A stretch of DNA of 44,417 nucleotides from a virus (Duplodnaviria; Heunggongvirae; Uroviricota; Caudoviricetes), in the IMG/VR virus record IMGVR_UViG_2606217118_000001; one strand, written 5' to 3'. The notes beneath the pieces were generated by a model. It was given only the letters and a program-made list of their open reading frames with translations. It was not told the DNA's origin and did no database searches. Within the stretch, counting starts at the first letter, position 1. Each line of letters opens with the position of its first letter. A program made the translations under genes and the position numbers. Of this stretch, positions 1,663-44,417 are shown in pieces.

Positions 1663-4600
1663 TATGCAAGCCTCACAATATAGTTAAATGCGATGTTTTT
1701 GACGGTGTTTTCCGCGTTACCAGCAGCGTTAACGGTGATGGTGTGTCCATGTGAGCCAATCGCAACCGAGTGCGTATGAGCACCAATACCGACAGTATGT
1801 GCGTGTGCACCTGCGCTTGCAGCAGTGCCGGACAGTGAGTGGGTATGAGCACCATCTGATGATGTCTTCCCTGCATTACGAGTCTGGCCACTACCGCTTG
1901 TTGTGCTCATAATCCCCGCGCTTGGATTTGAAATCGCGGTATAACCATTAGGGAAAATGCTCGTGTTCGTGCCACCAAATGCACCGGAACTCTTGTGTTG
2001 GTGCGCACCGGCACTATTTGCGGTCCCGCTAATACTATGGGTATGCGCCCCGGTGTTATTCGTGGATTTGGTTCCGTAATCAAACGACGATGTGGTTTTC
2101 GTCCCCAAATCCGTACTGGATGCGCTGGCGCTGTGGGTATGCGATTTAATGCCGTCCTGTTCCTGAGACAATACGGCCCGACCACTGGCAGGTTTGCCCT
2201 TAATCGTCCAGCCACGCATATCAGGGATCACGCCTGACGGATAAGCCGCTGCAAGTTTCGGGTAGGCAGATTTGTCAAAAGCCTGCCCCTGCATCAGGGC
2301 ATAGCCAGACGGAACGGTATCTGATGGCCACGGGATTGGTGCGCCGACTGGGTAGCTTTCTGGTGGAAGATTTTTCGAGGTATAAACTTCTGCCCAGTCT
2401 TCCTCAAAACCATAGCCATCTCTTGAGGAACGGTAGAACAGACCTCCATTTCTGTAATGCGCCTTCATCTGCAGGGTCCGGCAACTTCCGACTCCGGTAT
2501 AGAAGTTAACCAGAATATAGCTGTCGCCAGAGCGGGTGACATTGTAAGCGCCTGATTCGGCATTCCAGGGAACGCCACCATCCGCATCGGCATATGTATC
2601 CGTTGCCCTTCTGGCAAAAGCAGCCACATGCGCGGCGGTTAAAGTAATATCTTTGGAACCATCAAACTCAACACCAGAAACCAGTCTTGGCGTTTGCAGC
2701 TTTGTTGCTGTTAATGCATTACCGTTCAGACTTGCGGACAGTTTGGTTCCAATAATCAGTTCGCCGGTTGCGTTATCAATAGCAAACGGTCTTAATGTAT
2801 TCCAGCCACCATAAACATCACCTTGATTGGTAAGCAGCAGGTAAGTTTTAGCGCCATCATTACGCCATAATGCACCATACTCCCCACCTATCATTCGAAT
2901 CTGATTACCACCACGCGCTACAATTTCGTCTGTGGCAAAAAGTTTTTTGCACGACAAGTTATCGTTAACGATTAACGAATGAGACTCATAAAAACCACGC
3001 CCACTCTTAAAATCAAGGATAACGTCCGCCGCGATACATTCAGTCGCCGGATTTGTTGCCCCAAACTTATAGGTCGTATCATTAACAACGAGATCAGCAC
3101 CAGGTGCGGATATTGACAGGCCATCTTCGATAAACGCAAAAACAGGGAAAGCAGCGCCATCAACATAGAACACAGAGCGCAAATCATCGCCCTTATTACT
3201 CATCATTATTGAGTGGATGGCTCGTTCATTGTTTTGATATTGCCAGAACATTCCATAAGCATAACGCCCCCTGTCAGTCCAGCCACCAGGCATAACAAAT
3301 CCGTTAAACTCGCAGTTATTCATCGGATCGCCTGCGGTTCGCGTTGCCGTGGTGATAATGACCCTTGATGCCAGTTCGCTTACTGAGCCAGCAGAACGCA
3401 TAACAACAACAGGGTAATATTTTCCAGATGTTGCACCTGCAGGAGCGTTAACCCGCACATAACGCATACCACGCTTATCAGCAAAGTCTGTTTTACTGAC
3501 CGCGTTAATGTTGTTCAGGAAGCGTCCCTTATCGGGTATATCAGCGCCGTTCTGGTCTTTCTGCAGACGTTTCTCTGCATTGTCATAGGCTGATTTTACT
3601 GCCTTTGGCGTTGCCGCCAGCGTTTCAGACGTACTGTTGGTCGCACTGCTGAGCTGTACTACCCCCTTTTTCGTCGTGCTCGCATCCTCAAGCGCCACGG
3701 CGGATGCAATATCCTCTGCCCGTTTTGCCGCTGTCTCGGCGCGCGTTGCCGCGGATTCCGCCGTACTTTTGCTCTGTGCTGCCGCTGCCGCACTGCCAGC
3801 TGCCTCTGTCGCCTTCGTGGATGCTGTCGTGGCGCTGCCCTTCGCTGCTGACGCCTGTCTGGTCGCCTCATCTTTTGAAGCAGACGCCGATGATGCCGAT
3901 GACGCCGCCGAACTGGCTGACGATGCGGCAGCCGTTTTTGAGGATTCTGCGCTGGTTTCCGACGCTTTCGCGTTCGTTTCGGATGTCTTCGCTGCGGAAG
4001 CAGACCTCGCTGCTGCGCTGGCCTGTTCAGTGGCTTCGCCAGCCTTCGTTGTGGCTGTTGAAGCAGACGATGCGGCACTTTCTGCCGACTTTCCGGCAGC
4101 GGTGGCACTGGCTGAGGCCTGCCCGGCACTGGCTGAGGCCTGCCCGGCACTTGTTGACGCGGCGCTGGCAGACGACGCAGCCGCTGTTTTTGAGCCTGCC
4201 GCAGCTGAGGCACTCTGTCCCGCTGCCGTTTCAGAAGACTTAGCGTTCGTCTCGGACGTTTTGGCCGCCTTCGCAGAATTTGCTGTCGCCGTTGCCGAGG
4301 AAGCTGCGCTGCTGGCGCTCGAGGCTGCGCTCGTTTCTGATGATTTTGCCGCCTCTTTTGAAGCTGACGCATCCCGGGCTGAGGTGGCAGCTTCTGACGC
4401 TTTCGTGGTCGCGGTGGATGCAGAAGTGGCTGCTGATTGTTGTGACGCTGCCGCATTCGTTTCTGACGTTTTCGCCGCAGCGGCACTGGTGGCCGCCGCG
4501 CTTTTTGAGGACTCTGCAGCGGCAGCACTTTTTTCCGCTTCAGTGGCCTTTGTTGATGCCGTTCCTGCGCTGGAAGACGCTGACTGAGCCGACGACGCGG

Positions 4601-39568: not shown

Positions 39569-40354
39569 ATGAGTACAGCACTCGCAACGCTGGCAGGGAA
39601 GCTGGCTGAACGTGTCGGCATGGATTCTGTCGACCCACAGGAACTGATCACCACTCTTCGCCAGACGGCATTTAAAGGCGATGCCAGCGATGCGCAGTTC
39701 ATCGCATTGTTGATCGTCGCCAACCAGTACGGCCTTAATCCGTGGACGAAAGAAATTTACGCCTTCCCTGACAAGCAGAACGGCATCGTTCCGGTGGTGG
39801 GCGTTGATGGCTGGTCCCGTATCATCAATGAAAACCAGCAGTTTGATGGCATGGACTTTGAGCAGGACAATGAATCATGTACATGCCGGATTTACCGCAA
39901 GGACCGTAATCATCCGATCTGCGTTACCGAGTGGATGGATGAATGCCGCCGCGAACCATTCAAAACCCGCGAAGGCAGAGAAATCACCGGACCGTGGCAG
40001 TCGCATCCCAAACGGATGTTACGGCATAAAGCCATGATTCAGTGTGCCCGTCTGGCCTTCGGATTTGCTGGTATCTATGACAAGGATGAAGCCGAGCGCA
40101 TTGTCGAAAATACCGCATACACTGCAGAACGTCAGCCGGAACGCGACATCACTCCGGTTAACGATGAAACCATGCAGGAGATTAACACTATGCTGATTGC
40201 CCTGGACAAAACATGGGATGACGACTTATTGCCGCTCTGTTCCCAGATATTTCGCCGCGACATTCGCGCATCGTCAGAACTGACACAGGCCGAAGCAATG
40301 AAAGCTCTTGGATTCCTGAAACAGAAAGCCTCTGAACAGAAGGTGGCTGCATGA
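39569..40354 (+). CDS. bet: Bet (Red-beta single-strand annealing protein)
   Basis: 261 aa [66 protein letters not shown]... Confidence 0.95.
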
Positions 40355-41031
40355 CACCGGACATTATCCTGCAGCGTACCGGGATCGACGTGAGAGCTGT
40401 CGAACAGGGGGATGATGCATGGCACAAATTACGGCTCGGCGTCATCACCGCTTCAGAAGTTCACAACGTGATAGCAAAGCCCCGCTCAGGAAAGAAGTGG
40501 CCTGACATGAAAATGTCCTACTTCCACACCCTGCTGGCTGAGGTTTGCACCGGTGTGGCTCCGGAAGTTAACGCTAAGGCGCTGGCCTGGGGAAAACAGT
40601 ACGAGAACGACGCCAGAACCCTCTTTGAGTTCACTTCCGGCGTTAATGTTACTGAATCCCCGATCATCTATCGCGACGAAAGTATGCGCACCGCCTGCTC
40701 TCCCGATGGTTTATGCAGTGACGGCAACGGCCTTGAACTGAAATGCCCGTTTACCTCCCGGGATTTCATGAAGTTCCGGCTCGGTGGTTTCGAGGCCATA
40801 AAATCGGCTTACATGGCCCAGGTGCAGTACAGCATGTGGGTGACGCGAAAAGATGCCTGGTACTTTGCCAACTATGACCCACGAATGAAGCGTGAAGGCC
40901 TGCATTATGTCGTGGTTGAGCGGGATGAAAATTACATGGCGAGTTTTGACGAGATGGTGCCGGAGTTCATCGAAAAAATGGACGAGGCACTGGCTGAAAT
41001 TGGTTTTGTATTTGGGGAGCAATGGCGATGA
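40351..41031 (+). CDS. exo: Exo (Red-alpha 5'-3' exonuclease)
   Basis: 226 aa [65 protein letters not shown]... Confidence 0.95.
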
Positions 41032-41764: not shown

Positions 41765-41986
41765 ATGGCAGACATCATTGATTCAGCATCAGAAATTGAA
41801 GAATTACAGCGCAACACAGCAATAAAAATGCGCCGCCTGAACCACCAGGCTATATCTGCCACTCATTGTTGTGAGTGTGGCGATCCGATAGATGAACGAA
41901 GACGCTTGGCCGTTCAGGGTTGTCGGACTTGTGCAAGTTGCCAGGAGGATCTGGAACTTATCAGTAAACAGAGAGGTTCGAAGTGA
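41765..41986 (+). CDS. TraR/DksA-family C4 zinc-finger protein (lambda orf73-like)
   Basis: 73 aa with CxxC-x17-CxxC (CCECGDPIDERRRLAVQGCRTCASC). Confidence 0.65.
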   Translation: MADIIDSASEIEELQRNTAIKMRRLNHQAISATHCCECGDPIDERRRLAVQGCRTCASCQEDLELISKQRGSK

Positions 41987-42531
41987 GCGAAATTAACTCT
42001 CAGGCACTGCGTGAGGCGGCAGTAGCAATTGAAACAGTAGCAACACCTCAAAAATTGCTGGCATTTCGTATGAAAGTCACACCTCAGGTTGTGCTGGCTC
42101 TACTGGATGAACGAGATGCATTAAATGAACGCCTAGCCGAACTGGAGGCTGATTTAGCAGGGCTGGCCGAAGACCACCAGAAAGCGACTGAGTCAATTAA
42201 GCAGGCTGATGCAGCTGTTAAGTTGGCACACGAGAAGTTTTCGGCGCTGGCGGCGGAGAATGAGCTGGCTCGTAAAGCAGTTCAGGAATTCTGCGATGTT
42301 GTTGGCGACAGCACCGAGGTTATCTGCGAGGAGATTGGGAGAGATGGTGTTCTGGTTATTTTGGAGGCCATGAAGGCAACAGGAAATATGCCAGCCACCG
42401 ATGCTTTCCTGGCTGAAGTACGGGCGCAGGGGGTGGAGATGATGCGCGAACATCCATCAATCAAACTTTGCTCTTTGACGCACATATGTGATGAGTTAGC
42501 CGCCCAGCTTCGCAAAGGAGGCAACCAGTGA
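41983..42531 (+). CDS. ea22: Ea22-like protein (coiled-coil), unknown function
   Basis: 182 aa MSEINSQALREAAVAIETVATPQKLLAFRMKVTPQVVLALLDERDALNERLAELEADLAG... Confidence 0.65.
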   Translation: MSEINSQALREAAVAIETVATPQKLLAFRMKVTPQVVLALLDERDALNERLAELEADLAGLAEDHQKATESIKQADAAVKLAHEKFSALAAENELARKAVQEFCDVVGDSTEVICEEIGRDGVLVILEAMKATGNMPATDAFLAEVRAQGVEMMREHPSIKLCSLTHICDELAAQLRKGGNQ

Positions 42532-42661
42532 CTGGACATGCAGCAATCCTCGACATGTGCTGTGGCAGTCGCATGTTCTGGTTAGATAAGAATGACGAAC
42601 GGGCGAGATAAGCGATCGGTTAAGTGCTATAGTAATGCGCTTTTGTATTTATGGAGTGAAT

Positions 42662-43360
42662 ATGAAAAATATCCTACTGGCATCATTGTTAGTGGCATCG
42701 CCGGGTGCATTTGCAGCCAGCTTTGACTGCCAAAAGGCTTCGACAGCAATCGAACATAAAATCTGCGATAACGAACGTCTGTCAAAATTAGACGAACAGC
42801 TTAGCTCTGCCTATTCTAGTGCCCTCAAAGGAAACCCAGAGAACGCAGACACCCTAAAAATGGTTCAACGTCAGTGGGTAAATATGCGTGGAAAACTCAC
42901 TGATAATAAGGCTCTGGAGCTGGCTTATCTTATCCAAATTAATGGCCTCAAAGGTTTGGGGAGTTCAGTCAGCGTAACAGCGGCCAATGACATACCCACG
43001 TCGGCGCAGAAACATTCTAAAGAGCAGGAAGATACAAGTAAGGCAGAAGCTAAGTCGGTCAAGAACGGCAATAAGCTAACCTTAGAGTCATTCCGAGCTA
43101 AATATGTAGAAGTAGATGGTGAGTATTACAGCACGACATCCATTCCTAGAGGCAGTTCGTTCTTGTTCACTTGCGCTAGTCGTATTGCTGATGACCAAGT
43201 GAATATTTGGAAGAAACAGGCAGCCAAAGAGGGCAAAATCGACCTATTCTTTGAGGTTGAGAATCACTTACACACGGCTATGTTGAACGCCAATTTTCAG
43301 AAGTTGAATTCAGACCCTGCCAAAAGAGGTATTTGTAATCTGATTAACGCAGTGCCGTAA
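42662..43360 (+). CDS. Secreted moron protein with N-terminal DUF1311/LprI-like domain (tentative)
   Basis: Signal peptide MKNILLASLLVASPGAFA then ASFDCQKASTAIEHKICDNERLSKLDEQLSSAY (paired-Cys motif); SD GGAGTG; AT-rich codon usage. Confidence 0.7.
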   Translation: MKNILLASLLVASPGAFAASFDCQKASTAIEHKICDNERLSKLDEQLSSAYSSALKGNPENADTLKMVQRQWVNMRGKLTDNKALELAYLIQINGLKGLGSSVSVTAANDIPTSAQKHSKEQEDTSKAEAKSVKNGNKLTLESFRAKYVEVDGEYYSTTSIPRGSSFLFTCASRIADDQVNIWKKQAAKEGKIDLFFEVENHLHTAMLNANFQKLNSDPAKRGICNLINAVP

Positions 43361-43559
43361 GTAAATTTAGGGCCACAGTTGTGACCTTAAATATTTTTTT
43401 CAGCCTTTTCTTATTTGTAATAAGCAGTACTTGGTAGTGCTTATAAAACAGAATAAAAAATATATGACTTTGGCGATTACCCAGTAAAGATATTCGAAAT
43501 AAATGTAAATATCGACAATGAATAACTATCCTCGCACTCGCGGGGATTTCTTTTATCTG

Positions 43560-43584
43560 AACTCGCTACGGCGAGTTTTTTTTA
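43560..43584 (+). terminator. Rho-independent terminator
   Basis: actcgc-tacg-gcgagt hairpin followed by TTTTTTTT. Confidence 0.65.
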
Positions 43585-43596
43585 TGGAGATGATAA

Positions 43597-43764
43597 ATGC
43601 ACTTCCGAGTCACAGGTGAATGGAATGGAGAACCATTCAACAGAGTTATCGAAGCCGAGAACATCAGCGACTGCTATGACCACTGGATGCTGTGGGCGCA
43701 GATAGCACATGCAGACGTAACCAATATTCGAATTGAAGAACTGAAAGAACACCAAGCCGCCTGA
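43597..43764 (+). CDS. Hypothetical small protein (55 aa)
   Basis: MHFRVTGEWNGEPFNRVIEAENISDCYDHWMLWAQIAHADVTNIRIEELKEHQAA; SD GGAGATGA; followed by terminator. Confidence 0.5.
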   Translation: MHFRVTGEWNGEPFNRVIEAENISDCYDHWMLWAQIAHADVTNIRIEELKEHQAA

Positions 43765-43778
43765 TGGCGGTTTTTTGT
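43754..43778 (+). terminator. Rho-independent terminator after small ORF
   Basis: gccgcc-tgat-ggcgg hairpin followed by TTTTTT. Confidence 0.7.
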
Positions 43779-43779
43779 G

Positions 43780-44417
43780 CACAGAAAACCCCCAGCTAGG
43801 CTGGGGGTTCCGGAAAGCTTTCAGCTTTGAGCCAGTTATTAAAACCCCTTTTGATTTGTTAAAACACCTTGCGGTCTGGCAACTGCAAGTGTCAAACAAG
43901 AAATCAAAAGGGGGTCCCAATGGGGAACGAAAAGAGCTTAGCGCACACCCGATGGAACTGTAAATATCACATAGTTTTTGCGCCAAAATACCGAAGACAA
44001 GTGTTCTACAGAGAGAAGCGTAGAGCAATAGGCAGTATTTTGAGAAAGCTGTGTGAGTGGAAAAGCGTACGGATTCTTGAAGCTGAATGCTGTGCAGATC
44101 ATATCCATATGCTTGTGGAGATCCCGCCCAAAATGAGTGTATCCGGCTTTATGGGATATCTGAAAGGGAAAAGCAGTCTGATGCTTTACGAGCAGTTTGG
44201 TGATTTGAAATTCAAATACAGGAACAGAGAGTTCTGGTGCAGAGGGTACTACGTCGATACGGTGGGTAAGAACACGGCGAAGATACAGGATTACATAAAG
44301 CACCAGCTTGAAGAGGATAAAATGGGAGAGCAGTTATCGATTCCCTATCCGGGCAGCCCGTTTACGGGCCGTAAGTAACGAAGTTGGATGCAAATGTCAG
44401 ATCGTGTGCGCCTGTTA
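43780..44417 (+). mobile_element. IS200-family insertion sequence, partial (left-end hairpins plus tnpA; right end beyond window)
   Basis: Left-end palindromes cccccagc-tag-gctggggg and gaaagctttc followed by an IS200-type TnpA ORF. Confidence 0.8.
43920..44378 (+). CDS. tnpA: IS200/IS605-family Y1 (HUH) transposase TnpA
   Basis: Start MGNEKSLAHTRWNCKYHIVFAPKYRRQVFYREKRRAIGSILRKLCEWKSVRILEAECCADHIHMLVEIPPK (152 aa). Confidence 0.9.
   Translation: MGNEKSLAHTRWNCKYHIVFAPKYRRQVFYREKRRAIGSILRKLCEWKSVRILEAECCADHIHMLVEIPPKMSVSGFMGYLKGKSSLMLYEQFGDLKFKYRNREFWCRGYYVDTVGKNTAKIQDYIKHQLEEDKMGEQLSIPYPGSPFTGRK

Follow-up and report, generated by a model that had tools for sequence, protein, structure and literature searches.

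A phage-plasmid-related cassette in a lambdoid prophage encodes a predicted exported two-domain protein of the LprI family

The closest described relatives of the protein reported here belong to the LprI/DUF1311 family (Pfam PF07007), represented by the N-terminal domain of Mycobacterium tuberculosis LprI, by Escherichia coli YecT, and by Pseudomonas putida PP0307 (PDB 3GI7). The protein is encoded near the 3' end of a 44,417-nucleotide stretch of Caudoviricetes DNA (IMG/VR record IMGVR_UViG_2606217118_000001), hereafter the window. DUF1311-type immunity proteins of type VI secretion systems (T6SSs), such as Etsi4 and Psi15, combine a signal peptide with a DUF1311 domain, are periplasmic, and neutralize cell-wall-targeting toxins; Etsi4 rescues E. 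coli cells from Etse4, a toxin that attacks the cell wall from the periplasm (PMC12981562). LprI-domain genes adjoin lysozyme-like and pesticin-domain T6SS effectors, and are also found as orphan immunity genes (PMC9796082; bioRxiv 10.64898/2026.08.01.741415; PMC12135965). Salmonella ScwA (SL1344_0490) is a soluble periplasmic LprI-domain protein, horizontally acquired, with four conserved cysteines in functional disulfides (PMC7933661). Bacteriophage T4 Spackle (gp61.3) is small and helical, contains a disulfide, and has its signal peptide cleaved off; in the periplasm, it inhibits the gp5 tail lysozyme, and it protects the infected cell from incoming tail lysozyme (PMC7677548). Here, we show that the LprI-family gene of the window lies in an ~0.85 kb cassette, composed of a candidate promoter, one gene, and a weak terminator, that is related to SSU5-type phage-plasmid DNA. 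This cassette recombined into a methyltransferase gene 3' of ea22 in a lambdoid phage and left a 27-codon stub behind.

At its 3' end, the window covers the early-left (pL) arm of a lambdoid prophage, read on the + strand. The last backbone gene of this arm 5' of the cassette is ea22-like (41983–42531, + strand; Pfam Ead_Ea22, 38 bits), and is annotated ead/Ea22-like in RefSeq relatives. A preliminary description, made from the sequence alone, had noted a 29-codon open reading frame (ORF) overlapping the ea22 stop, and had taken it for the start of a truncated gene. The overlap is present: a GTG start (ccaGTGAct), with a strong Shine-Dalgarno sequence (AAGGAGG) upstream, overlaps the TGA stop of the ea22-like gene. 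The ORF (42528–42611, + strand) encodes VTGHAAILDMCCGSRMFWLDKNDERAR, however, and is thus 27 codons plus a stop. It proved to be what is left, approximately the first 26 codons, of a phage gene for an S-adenosylmethionine (SAM)-dependent DNA methyltransferase, as judged from tblastn, PHROG matches, and a junction alignment. The stub keeps motif I (LDMCCGSRMFW), is 88.5% identical over 26 amino acids to Stx2c phages and 73–86% identical to annotated methyltransferases of Erwinia, Salmonella, Klebsiella, and Pectobacterium phages (tblastn), and matches the methyltransferase PHROGs 11564, 7811, and 954 (E 1e-11 to 3e-9). In Stx2c_EH0474, an intact methyltransferase gene of 175 codons follows the ea22-like gene with the same overlap; an intact 175-aa ORF lies at L004:2468–2995. 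The stub does not hold a complete catalytic domain, with approximately 26 residues against ~165–175 in intact homologues, and is thus a true gene remnant (pseudogene) of the methyltransferase.

Nucleotide homology to the methyltransferase gene stops at ~42616, and homology to the Salmonella phage-plasmid SSU5 begins at ~42593. In the overlap of the two (42593–42616), which we regard as the left recombination junction on the basis of BLAST coordinates and a four-way alignment, both parents share patchy microhomology (GACGAnCnGnCGAnA..AGC). This patchy parental identity suggests a microhomology-assisted illegitimate recombination. From this junction, DNA up to position 43400 is 83% identical to SSU5 phage-plasmids, a span (42593–43400) that takes in the entire gene together with ~70 bp preceding it and a hairpin with a T-run. 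An AT-rich stretch (43401–43466) then separates the end of SSU5 homology from the start of an HK022-type backbone at 43467; we take this interval, found in all E. coli prophage copies, as the right junction. The gene had been called AT-rich, which holds but is modest: its GC content is 44.2%, and that of the cassette 42.1%, versus 51.1% for the window and 51.4% for ea22.

Upstream of the gene, we noted a candidate extended −10 element, TGcTATAGT (42625–42633, + strand; read from the sequence), with the counterpart TGaTATAGT in SSU5. A consensus promoter scan reported none at this position. Because the scan made no call and the −35 is poor, we infer an autonomous cassette promoter only tentatively. 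Downstream, an imperfect hairpin followed by a T-run (43365–43402, + strand; RNA fold) is the candidate intrinsic terminator of the cassette. The hairpin (43365–43392) is weak (−10.4 kcal/mol, z −1.87) and lies inside the SSU5 homology. A terminator of its own had been claimed for the gene in the preliminary description. This claim may apply to the weaker cassette hairpin, but not to the more prominent tandem terminators further downstream (43528–43585, + strand; terminator scan, fold, and HK022 alignment). The latter comprise two hairpins (43528–43547 and 43559–43578) that are strong (−27.1 kcal/mol, z −5.5) and common to HK022 and phage N7, and the first is annotated as the tL4 terminator in HK022. 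In both phages, the terminator block continues unchanged into the ribosome-binding site (RBS) and start of a 55-aa ORF. By this alignment, the tandem terminators (43528–43578) are part of the conserved backbone, outside the cassette.

The cassette is present or absent against a conserved backbone and deviates in base composition, as morons do. Like the lambdoid morons bor, lom, sieB, and cor, it contains just one gene, flanked by a candidate promoter and a candidate terminator, has a lower GC content than its neighbours, occurs in a minority of otherwise similar phages, and has a product predicted to be envelope-directed. Unlike classical morons, it sits outside the late and nin regions, at the far end of the pL arm beside xis/int, it arose by recombination into a methyltransferase gene, and its expression in the lysogen is presumed.

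Homologous cassettes sit in unrelated replicons, and most phages with the same flanks lack the cassette; SSU5 itself carries the gene (SSU5_101) in a different neighbourhood. The MRE162 and M18 prophages, which differ in recombination modules and integration sites, have an identical stub and cassette with the same 130 bp spacing, but after a different upstream gene (DUF2737). Since stub and cassette keep their spacing behind a different gene, the insertion occurred once and then spread via gene-boundary recombination; the two have since been shuffled as a single unit among E. coli prophages. We also noted the sequence CGCAAAGGAGGCAACC(A/G)GTGA at window positions 42510–42531, and the same near positions 3395–3415 of loci L006 and L007. 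Two unrelated upstream genes end in it (ea22-like here, DUF2737 in the MRE162 and M18 prophages), and it also provides the methyltransferase stub with its RBS and start. It resembles a conserved linker between genes, at which lambdoid early-left modules are exchanged.

Escherichia phage ev099 and prophages of 106 complete E. coli genomes contain positions 42300–43776 at 99.9% identity. Matches to at least a part of this region occur in 2932 genomes, of which only 106 match it throughout. Among 5426 complete E. coli genomes, we counted ~107 full chromosomal copies at an identity of at least 98%, 17 plasmid copies at 83%, and one IS1-truncated remnant. The cassette was present in a further 126 plasmids of ~110 kb from Enterobacter, Escherichia, and Citrobacter, nearly all non-mobilizable, which is consistent with SSU5-like phage-plasmids. 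In the truncated case, E. coli PSS-08-2 (L013 1748–2617), an IS1A element deleted the LprI-family gene down to its final ~11 bases together with all preceding sequence, and the 3' end of the gene, the hairpin, the AT-rich spacer, and then the 55-aa ORF, xis, and int are kept. We rejected PSS-08-2 as an independent copy of the cassette 3' end, as it is an IS1-truncated remnant.

The gene of the cassette (42662–43360, + strand) encodes 232 amino acids, one fewer than first counted, from an ATG at 42662 with a GGAG RBS 5 nt upstream (42653–42656). Some gene callers begin at an ATG at 42635, giving 241 aa (cluster P0001). We rejected this longer start because it lacks a Shine-Dalgarno sequence and because the homologues all start with MKN or MKK. 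The signal peptide anticipated in the preliminary description has the expected features: residues 1–18 (MKNILLASLLVASPGAFA, followed by AS; 42662–42715, + strand) show classical n, h, and c regions upon inspection, with K2, a hydrophobic core (ILLASLLVA) that is the highest Kyte-Doolittle nine-residue window of the protein, and a putative cleavage site at AFA/AS. These signal-peptide features recur in all relatives, the position of the A-x-A motif before SFDC is conserved in homologues, and the mature protein would start one residue before this invariant SFDC. A lipoprotein was considered and rejected, as the first cysteine lacks a preceding lipobox. The four cysteines are all conserved, in line with an oxidizing compartment. 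From these features, the product is probably a Sec-exported soluble protein, cleaved by signal peptidase I to a mature form of ~23.6 kDa.

The likeness of the N-terminal paired-cysteine motif to LprI/DUF1311, also proposed in the preliminary description, was borne out. Residues 19–100 (42716–42961, + strand) form a short-form LprI/DUF1311 domain with C23, C35, Q69, W72, and R76; Pfam LprI matched residues 23–78 with 25.2 bits (cut-off 22; E 2.2e-5), and 14 of the 15 family members scanned matched PF07007. As in that family, the domain is predicted to be secreted and helical, and it starts SFDC...IC...LD..L...Y......Q..W...R, in which C23 and C35 are (nearly) invariant among homologues. Unlike the family norm, the protein is of the short form, has leucine and alanine at the second cysteine pair, and connects the domain, through a linker predicted to be disordered, to a C-terminal domain specific to its own family. 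The leucine and alanine recur in some, though not most, other short-form DUF1311 members. The protein therefore does not contain a full-length four-cysteine PF07007 domain, C171 and C225 belonging to the other domain; nevertheless, an alignment with small single-domain relatives shows that the N-terminal domain is a complete short-form module, and its predicted fold is the helical one of DUF1311.

The linker (residues 101–138; 42962–43075, + strand) is rich in S, T, K, E, and Q, of low complexity, predicted to be disordered (pLDDT <35), and variable in length and sequence among homologues. The C-terminal domain (residues 139–232 and the stop; 43076–43360, + strand; pLDDT 80–92) is predicted to comprise a short helix, a beta-hairpin, and three helices, and C171, N209, and C225 are invariant across these domains. 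It matched no Pfam family and no PDB sequence, and had no relatives outside the two-domain family; a search for the domain with other N-termini returned only fragments of the same family. We considered that it might be the missing half of a split DUF1311 domain, but rejected this idea since the N-terminal domain is complete and hhalign against DUF1311 profiles found no relation (probability 0.1). Disulfides C23–C35 and C171–C225 are probable from the sequence. Taken together, the N-terminal part appears to be an LprI/DUF1311 three-helix domain and the C-terminal part a family-specific one.

The predicted folds and pLDDT values were taken from an AlphaFold model. A first run with a shallow alignment (12 sequences of at least 70% identity) gave a pLDDT of 44 and was discarded; a rerun with distant relatives added reached 70.8 and was adopted. 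The predicted structure is helical except for one hairpin, and a Foldseek search of it against the PDB found nothing significant (best E 2.8). An NCBIfam scan of the protein gave sub-threshold noise only (CpoB, and the A1S_1983 colistin-resistance family at 15.5 bits against a cut-off of 150). In comparison with the SSU5 gene, dN/dS (Nei-Gojobori) was 0.08 for the N-terminal domain, 0.06 for the C-terminal domain, and 1.14 for the linker, hence strong purifying selection constrains both folded domains functionally, and the linker is a free spacer. In E. coli prophage copies that are 98–99% identical, the linker holds 5/8 and 4/7 of the non-synonymous changes and no synonymous ones. Overall, we are highly confident in the structural and evolutionary description of this locus as a cassette, a gene remnant, and a predicted exported two-domain LprI-family protein.

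An exhaustive HMMER search returned 5040 relatives, almost all aligned to approximately residues 1–100 only; both domains were shared by only a handful of proteins, at 26–38% identity. Close relatives (70–81% identity) are on ~110-kb contigs or plasmids of Salmonella, Enterobacter, Citrobacter, and Klebsiella. A two-domain relative (P0077, 27–28% identity; L008 4575–5258, also L009 and L010) lies in a small island that splits comM (Mg-chelatase/ChlI-like), together with an EcoRV-type endonuclease, a D12-class adenine methyltransferase, an HTH regulator, and two serine recombinases. Others, at 26–33% identity, are held by lytic T4-like phages (L015 6001–6657; L011 5379–6017; the P0202 contig). 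In L011 and the P0202 contig, the relative lies between rnlB and inh/hoc/24/23. In L015, a T4-like metagenomic contig, gene 41 is followed by 61.1, the primase gene 61, and directly thereafter the relative, and dmd, 61.4, sp, and 61.2, which separate 41 from 61.1 in T4, are absent. Furthermore, tblastn and BFVD revealed LprI-domain genes, all annotated as hypothetical, in T4-like phages of Aeromonas, Klebsiella, Escherichia (RB49, Phi1), and Stenotrophomonas; the BFVD matches of the protein itself are phage DUF1311 proteins. From the locations of these relatives, the family spans lytic, temperate, and plasmid-prophage lifestyles of phages and mobile elements.

The assignment to DUF1311 is not new, as the gene already bears the RefSeq name 'lysozyme inhibitor LprI family protein' (YP_009909933.1 in ev099, YP_006906733.1 in SSU5, WP_001518156.1 in MRE162); the words 'lysozyme inhibitor' in this name are without direct support and may mislead. 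The preliminary description had proposed a role in lysogenic conversion or envelope defense, which is plausible; no homology of the protein to a characterized phage protein, which would have spoken against this proposal, was found. The most economical mechanism, to which we assign a probability of about 0.4, would be the periplasmic neutralization of an incoming peptidoglycan hydrolase. The protein would be located in the lysogen's periplasm (for the T4-like relatives, in that of the infected cell), and would bind and neutralize a peptidoglycan-degrading enzyme that arrives from outside. Candidate targets are the tail-associated lysozyme of a superinfecting phage and a T6SS or bacteriocin muramidase, the two versions being sub-cases of the same mechanism. 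The cell wall, and hence the resident phage, would be protected; the DUF1311 module would serve as a shared recognition scaffold, and the C-terminal domain would provide target specificity. We favor this mechanism because of the work on T6SS immunity, the phage-centred distribution of the family, and the precedent of Spackle. That two-domain relatives occupy early or hyperplastic regions in the genomes of lytic T4-like phages fits a function of use to phages generally.

Several observations weigh against neutralization of an incoming hydrolase. The PF07007 match spans only profile positions 1–70 of 106, and the second cysteine pair of the domain (the usual C.D..C) is missing. In M. tuberculosis LprI, as the ScwA paper mentions, the MliC domain suffices for lysozyme resistance (PMC7933661), and a Pfam scan found no MliC domain in our protein, which also differs from LprI in not being a lipoprotein. 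According to the same paper, the 'lysozyme inhibitor' annotation of the LprI domain is without experimental support, and ScwA has no effect on lysozyme sensitivity but raises MltD (PMC7933661). PHROG 4675, to which the protein belongs, is of 'unknown function'. No effector or hydrolase gene was found beside the gene in any context examined; the neighbours of the gene and its relatives are phage early genes, xis/int, restriction-modification genes, and T4-like replication genes. PADLOC defense models gave no match, and the protein has no similarity to Spackle in sequence or fold. Klebsiella T4-like phages hold both Spackle and an LprI-domain gene, hence the two are not simple alternatives, and we rejected a strict complementarity between them across T4-like phages. 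Lastly, transcription of the gene in the lysogen is something we infer from a promoter motif alone.

A more far-reaching proposal, which we consider doubtful, is that the two-domain proteins constitute an unrecognized family, encoded by phages, that inhibits incoming peptidoglycan hydrolases in the periplasm, and as such are a functional counterpart of Spackle. The family would be common to temperate lambdoid phages, SSU5-type phage-plasmids, and lytic T4-like phages; it would confer superinfection exclusion or resistance to lysis from without, and its fast-evolving linker and its C-terminal domain would tune the target range. Our protein resembles Spackle in being small, phage-encoded, and predicted to be helical, and in its probable disulfides, predicted signal peptide, and predicted periplasmic location; its relatives occur in comparable early regions of T4-like genomes. 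Unlike Spackle, it has two domains and 214 mature residues versus 75. We offer the analogy as a hypothesis.

Among the rival explanations, superinfection exclusion of the Spackle type, in which the tail peptidoglycan hydrolase of an incoming phage is inhibited and genome entry is blocked, survives best, although we still rate it as rather unlikely. It is a narrower form of the neutralization mechanism. Exclusion is a classical function of prophage cargo genes. The two-domain family occurs almost only on phages and mobile elements, in all lifestyles, and one T4-like contig has the gene right after 61 and is without the genes that lie between 41 and 61.1 in T4, including sp. LprI-domain genes were present in 41 Aeromonas phages, and Aeromonas is outside the ten commonest host names among Spackle matches. 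On the other hand, the lack of similarity to Spackle and the co-occurrence of both genes in some Klebsiella T4-like phages speak against this explanation, and the synteny is loose, since other T4-like relatives have the gene near rnlB/inh.

Alternatively, the protein might be an orphan immunity protein against T6SS or bacteriocin cell-wall toxins that gives the lysogen a competitive advantage in the gut, a form of lysogenic conversion; this we think unlikely. The DUF1311 proteins Etsi4 and Psi15, as well as orphan LprI genes, are linked to peptidoglycan-targeting effectors, and E. coli itself encodes effectors of this kind (PMC12981562). Compared by description, our protein shares with Etsi4 and Psi15 the DUF1311 domain, together with a signal peptide and a periplasmic location (both predicted here), and such immunity proteins can likewise be stand-alone genes on mobile DNA. 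It differs from them in having no adjacent cognate effector in the contexts examined, in being borne by phages, lytic ones included, and in its extra C-terminal domain. The presence of relatives in strictly lytic T4-like phages is hard to square with an immunity role, and the C-terminal domain is not in T6SS loci, given that it has no relatives outside its family.

A modulator resembling ScwA, which would bind or stabilize a host lytic transglycosylase or the lysis proteins of the phage and so alter wall homeostasis or lysis timing instead of blocking foreign enzymes, is less probable again. ScwA, a soluble periplasmic LprI-domain protein with functional disulfides, raises MltD and has no role in lysozyme resistance (PMC7933661), our protein shares its predicted solubility, periplasmic location, and horizontal acquisition along with four conserved cysteines, and a role in lysis timing would suit lytic and temperate phages alike. 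By contrast, the LprI domain of ScwA is C-terminal (residues 185–271), the remainder of ScwA is unrelated, and its gene is chromosomal rather than phage-borne. Moreover, our gene and its relatives lie in the early-left arm or in early regions, distant from lysis cassettes.

It is similarly improbable that DUF1311 is a generic N-terminal scaffold and that the C-terminal domain has an unrelated activity, for instance receptor masking or binding of an outer-membrane component. Thousands of relatives share only approximately the first 100 residues, and their C-terminal parts are diverse (caspase, PG-binding, and FGE-sulfatase domains among them); the C-terminal domain of our protein is as constrained as the N-terminal one and unique to the family. 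Nothing points to such an activity of the C-terminal domain, however, and a generic scaffold does not conflict with the neutralization mechanism, in which the C-terminal domain would be the specificity determinant. Finally, an inhibitor of animal-host lysozyme acting as a virulence or colonization factor, as the RefSeq name suggests, is very unlikely: the family name, the reported inhibition of lysozyme by M. tuberculosis LprI (as cited in PMC7933661 and PMC12135965), and the avian, porcine, and human isolates among many cassette carriers favor it, but LprI was the sole Pfam family in the protein and its relatives, with none of the beta-rich inhibitor domains MliC/PliC, Ivy, PliG, or PliI, ScwA shows that an LprI domain alone yields no lysozyme phenotype (PMC7933661), and relatives in aquatic Aeromonas phages speak against an animal-specific target.

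The cassette is embedded in a recognizable backbone. Upstream in the early-left arm are bet/RecT (39569–40354, + strand), exo (40351–41031, + strand), and a gene for a 73-aa DksA/TraR-type C4 zinc-finger protein (41765–41986, + strand; Pfam zf-dskA_traR, 35.8 bits), which overlaps the ea22-like gene directly 3' of it and is named 'DksA-like zinc-finger protein' in ev099. Downstream, the 55-aa ORF (43597–43764, + strand; PHROG 676, E 5.5e-40) is an annotated CDS in ev099, N7, MRE162, and others, and lies 5' of xis/int in relatives; the gene order in ev099 is ea22-like, LprI-family gene, 55-aa ORF, xis, and int. In our sequence, an IS200C copy (43777–44417, + strand; tnpA 43920–44378; Pfam Y1_Tnp 130.7 bits, NCBIfam IS200 147.7 bits) parts the 55-aa ORF from the site where ev099 and other relatives have xis/int. 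The insertion point (43776/43777) is directly after the T-run of the terminator hairpin of the 55-aa ORF, where the ev099 sequence is uninterrupted. The 3' limit of the window falls inside the element, which we named from the IS200C annotation in other genomes. We noted that matches to IS200C copies elsewhere start at window positions 43749–43754, hence there is a resemblance between the phage terminator hairpin GCCGCCTGATGGCGGTTTTTT and either the left end of the element or the target that it prefers.

This locus is a clean and datable case of mosaic evolution, in which one recombination event within a methyltransferase gene produced a diagnostic stub of 27 codons that now travels with the cassette. 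With regard to function, the reading most worth testing is that of a Spackle-like or immunity-like envelope-protection family common to very different phages. If the protein does neutralize cell-wall hydrolases that come in, a prophage-borne envelope defense would be present in ~2% of sequenced E. coli and in the widespread SSU5-type phage-plasmids, and could influence the host range of phage therapy or interbacterial competition. It would also provide the first function for a DUF1311 subfamily that is conserved from temperate to T4-like phages.

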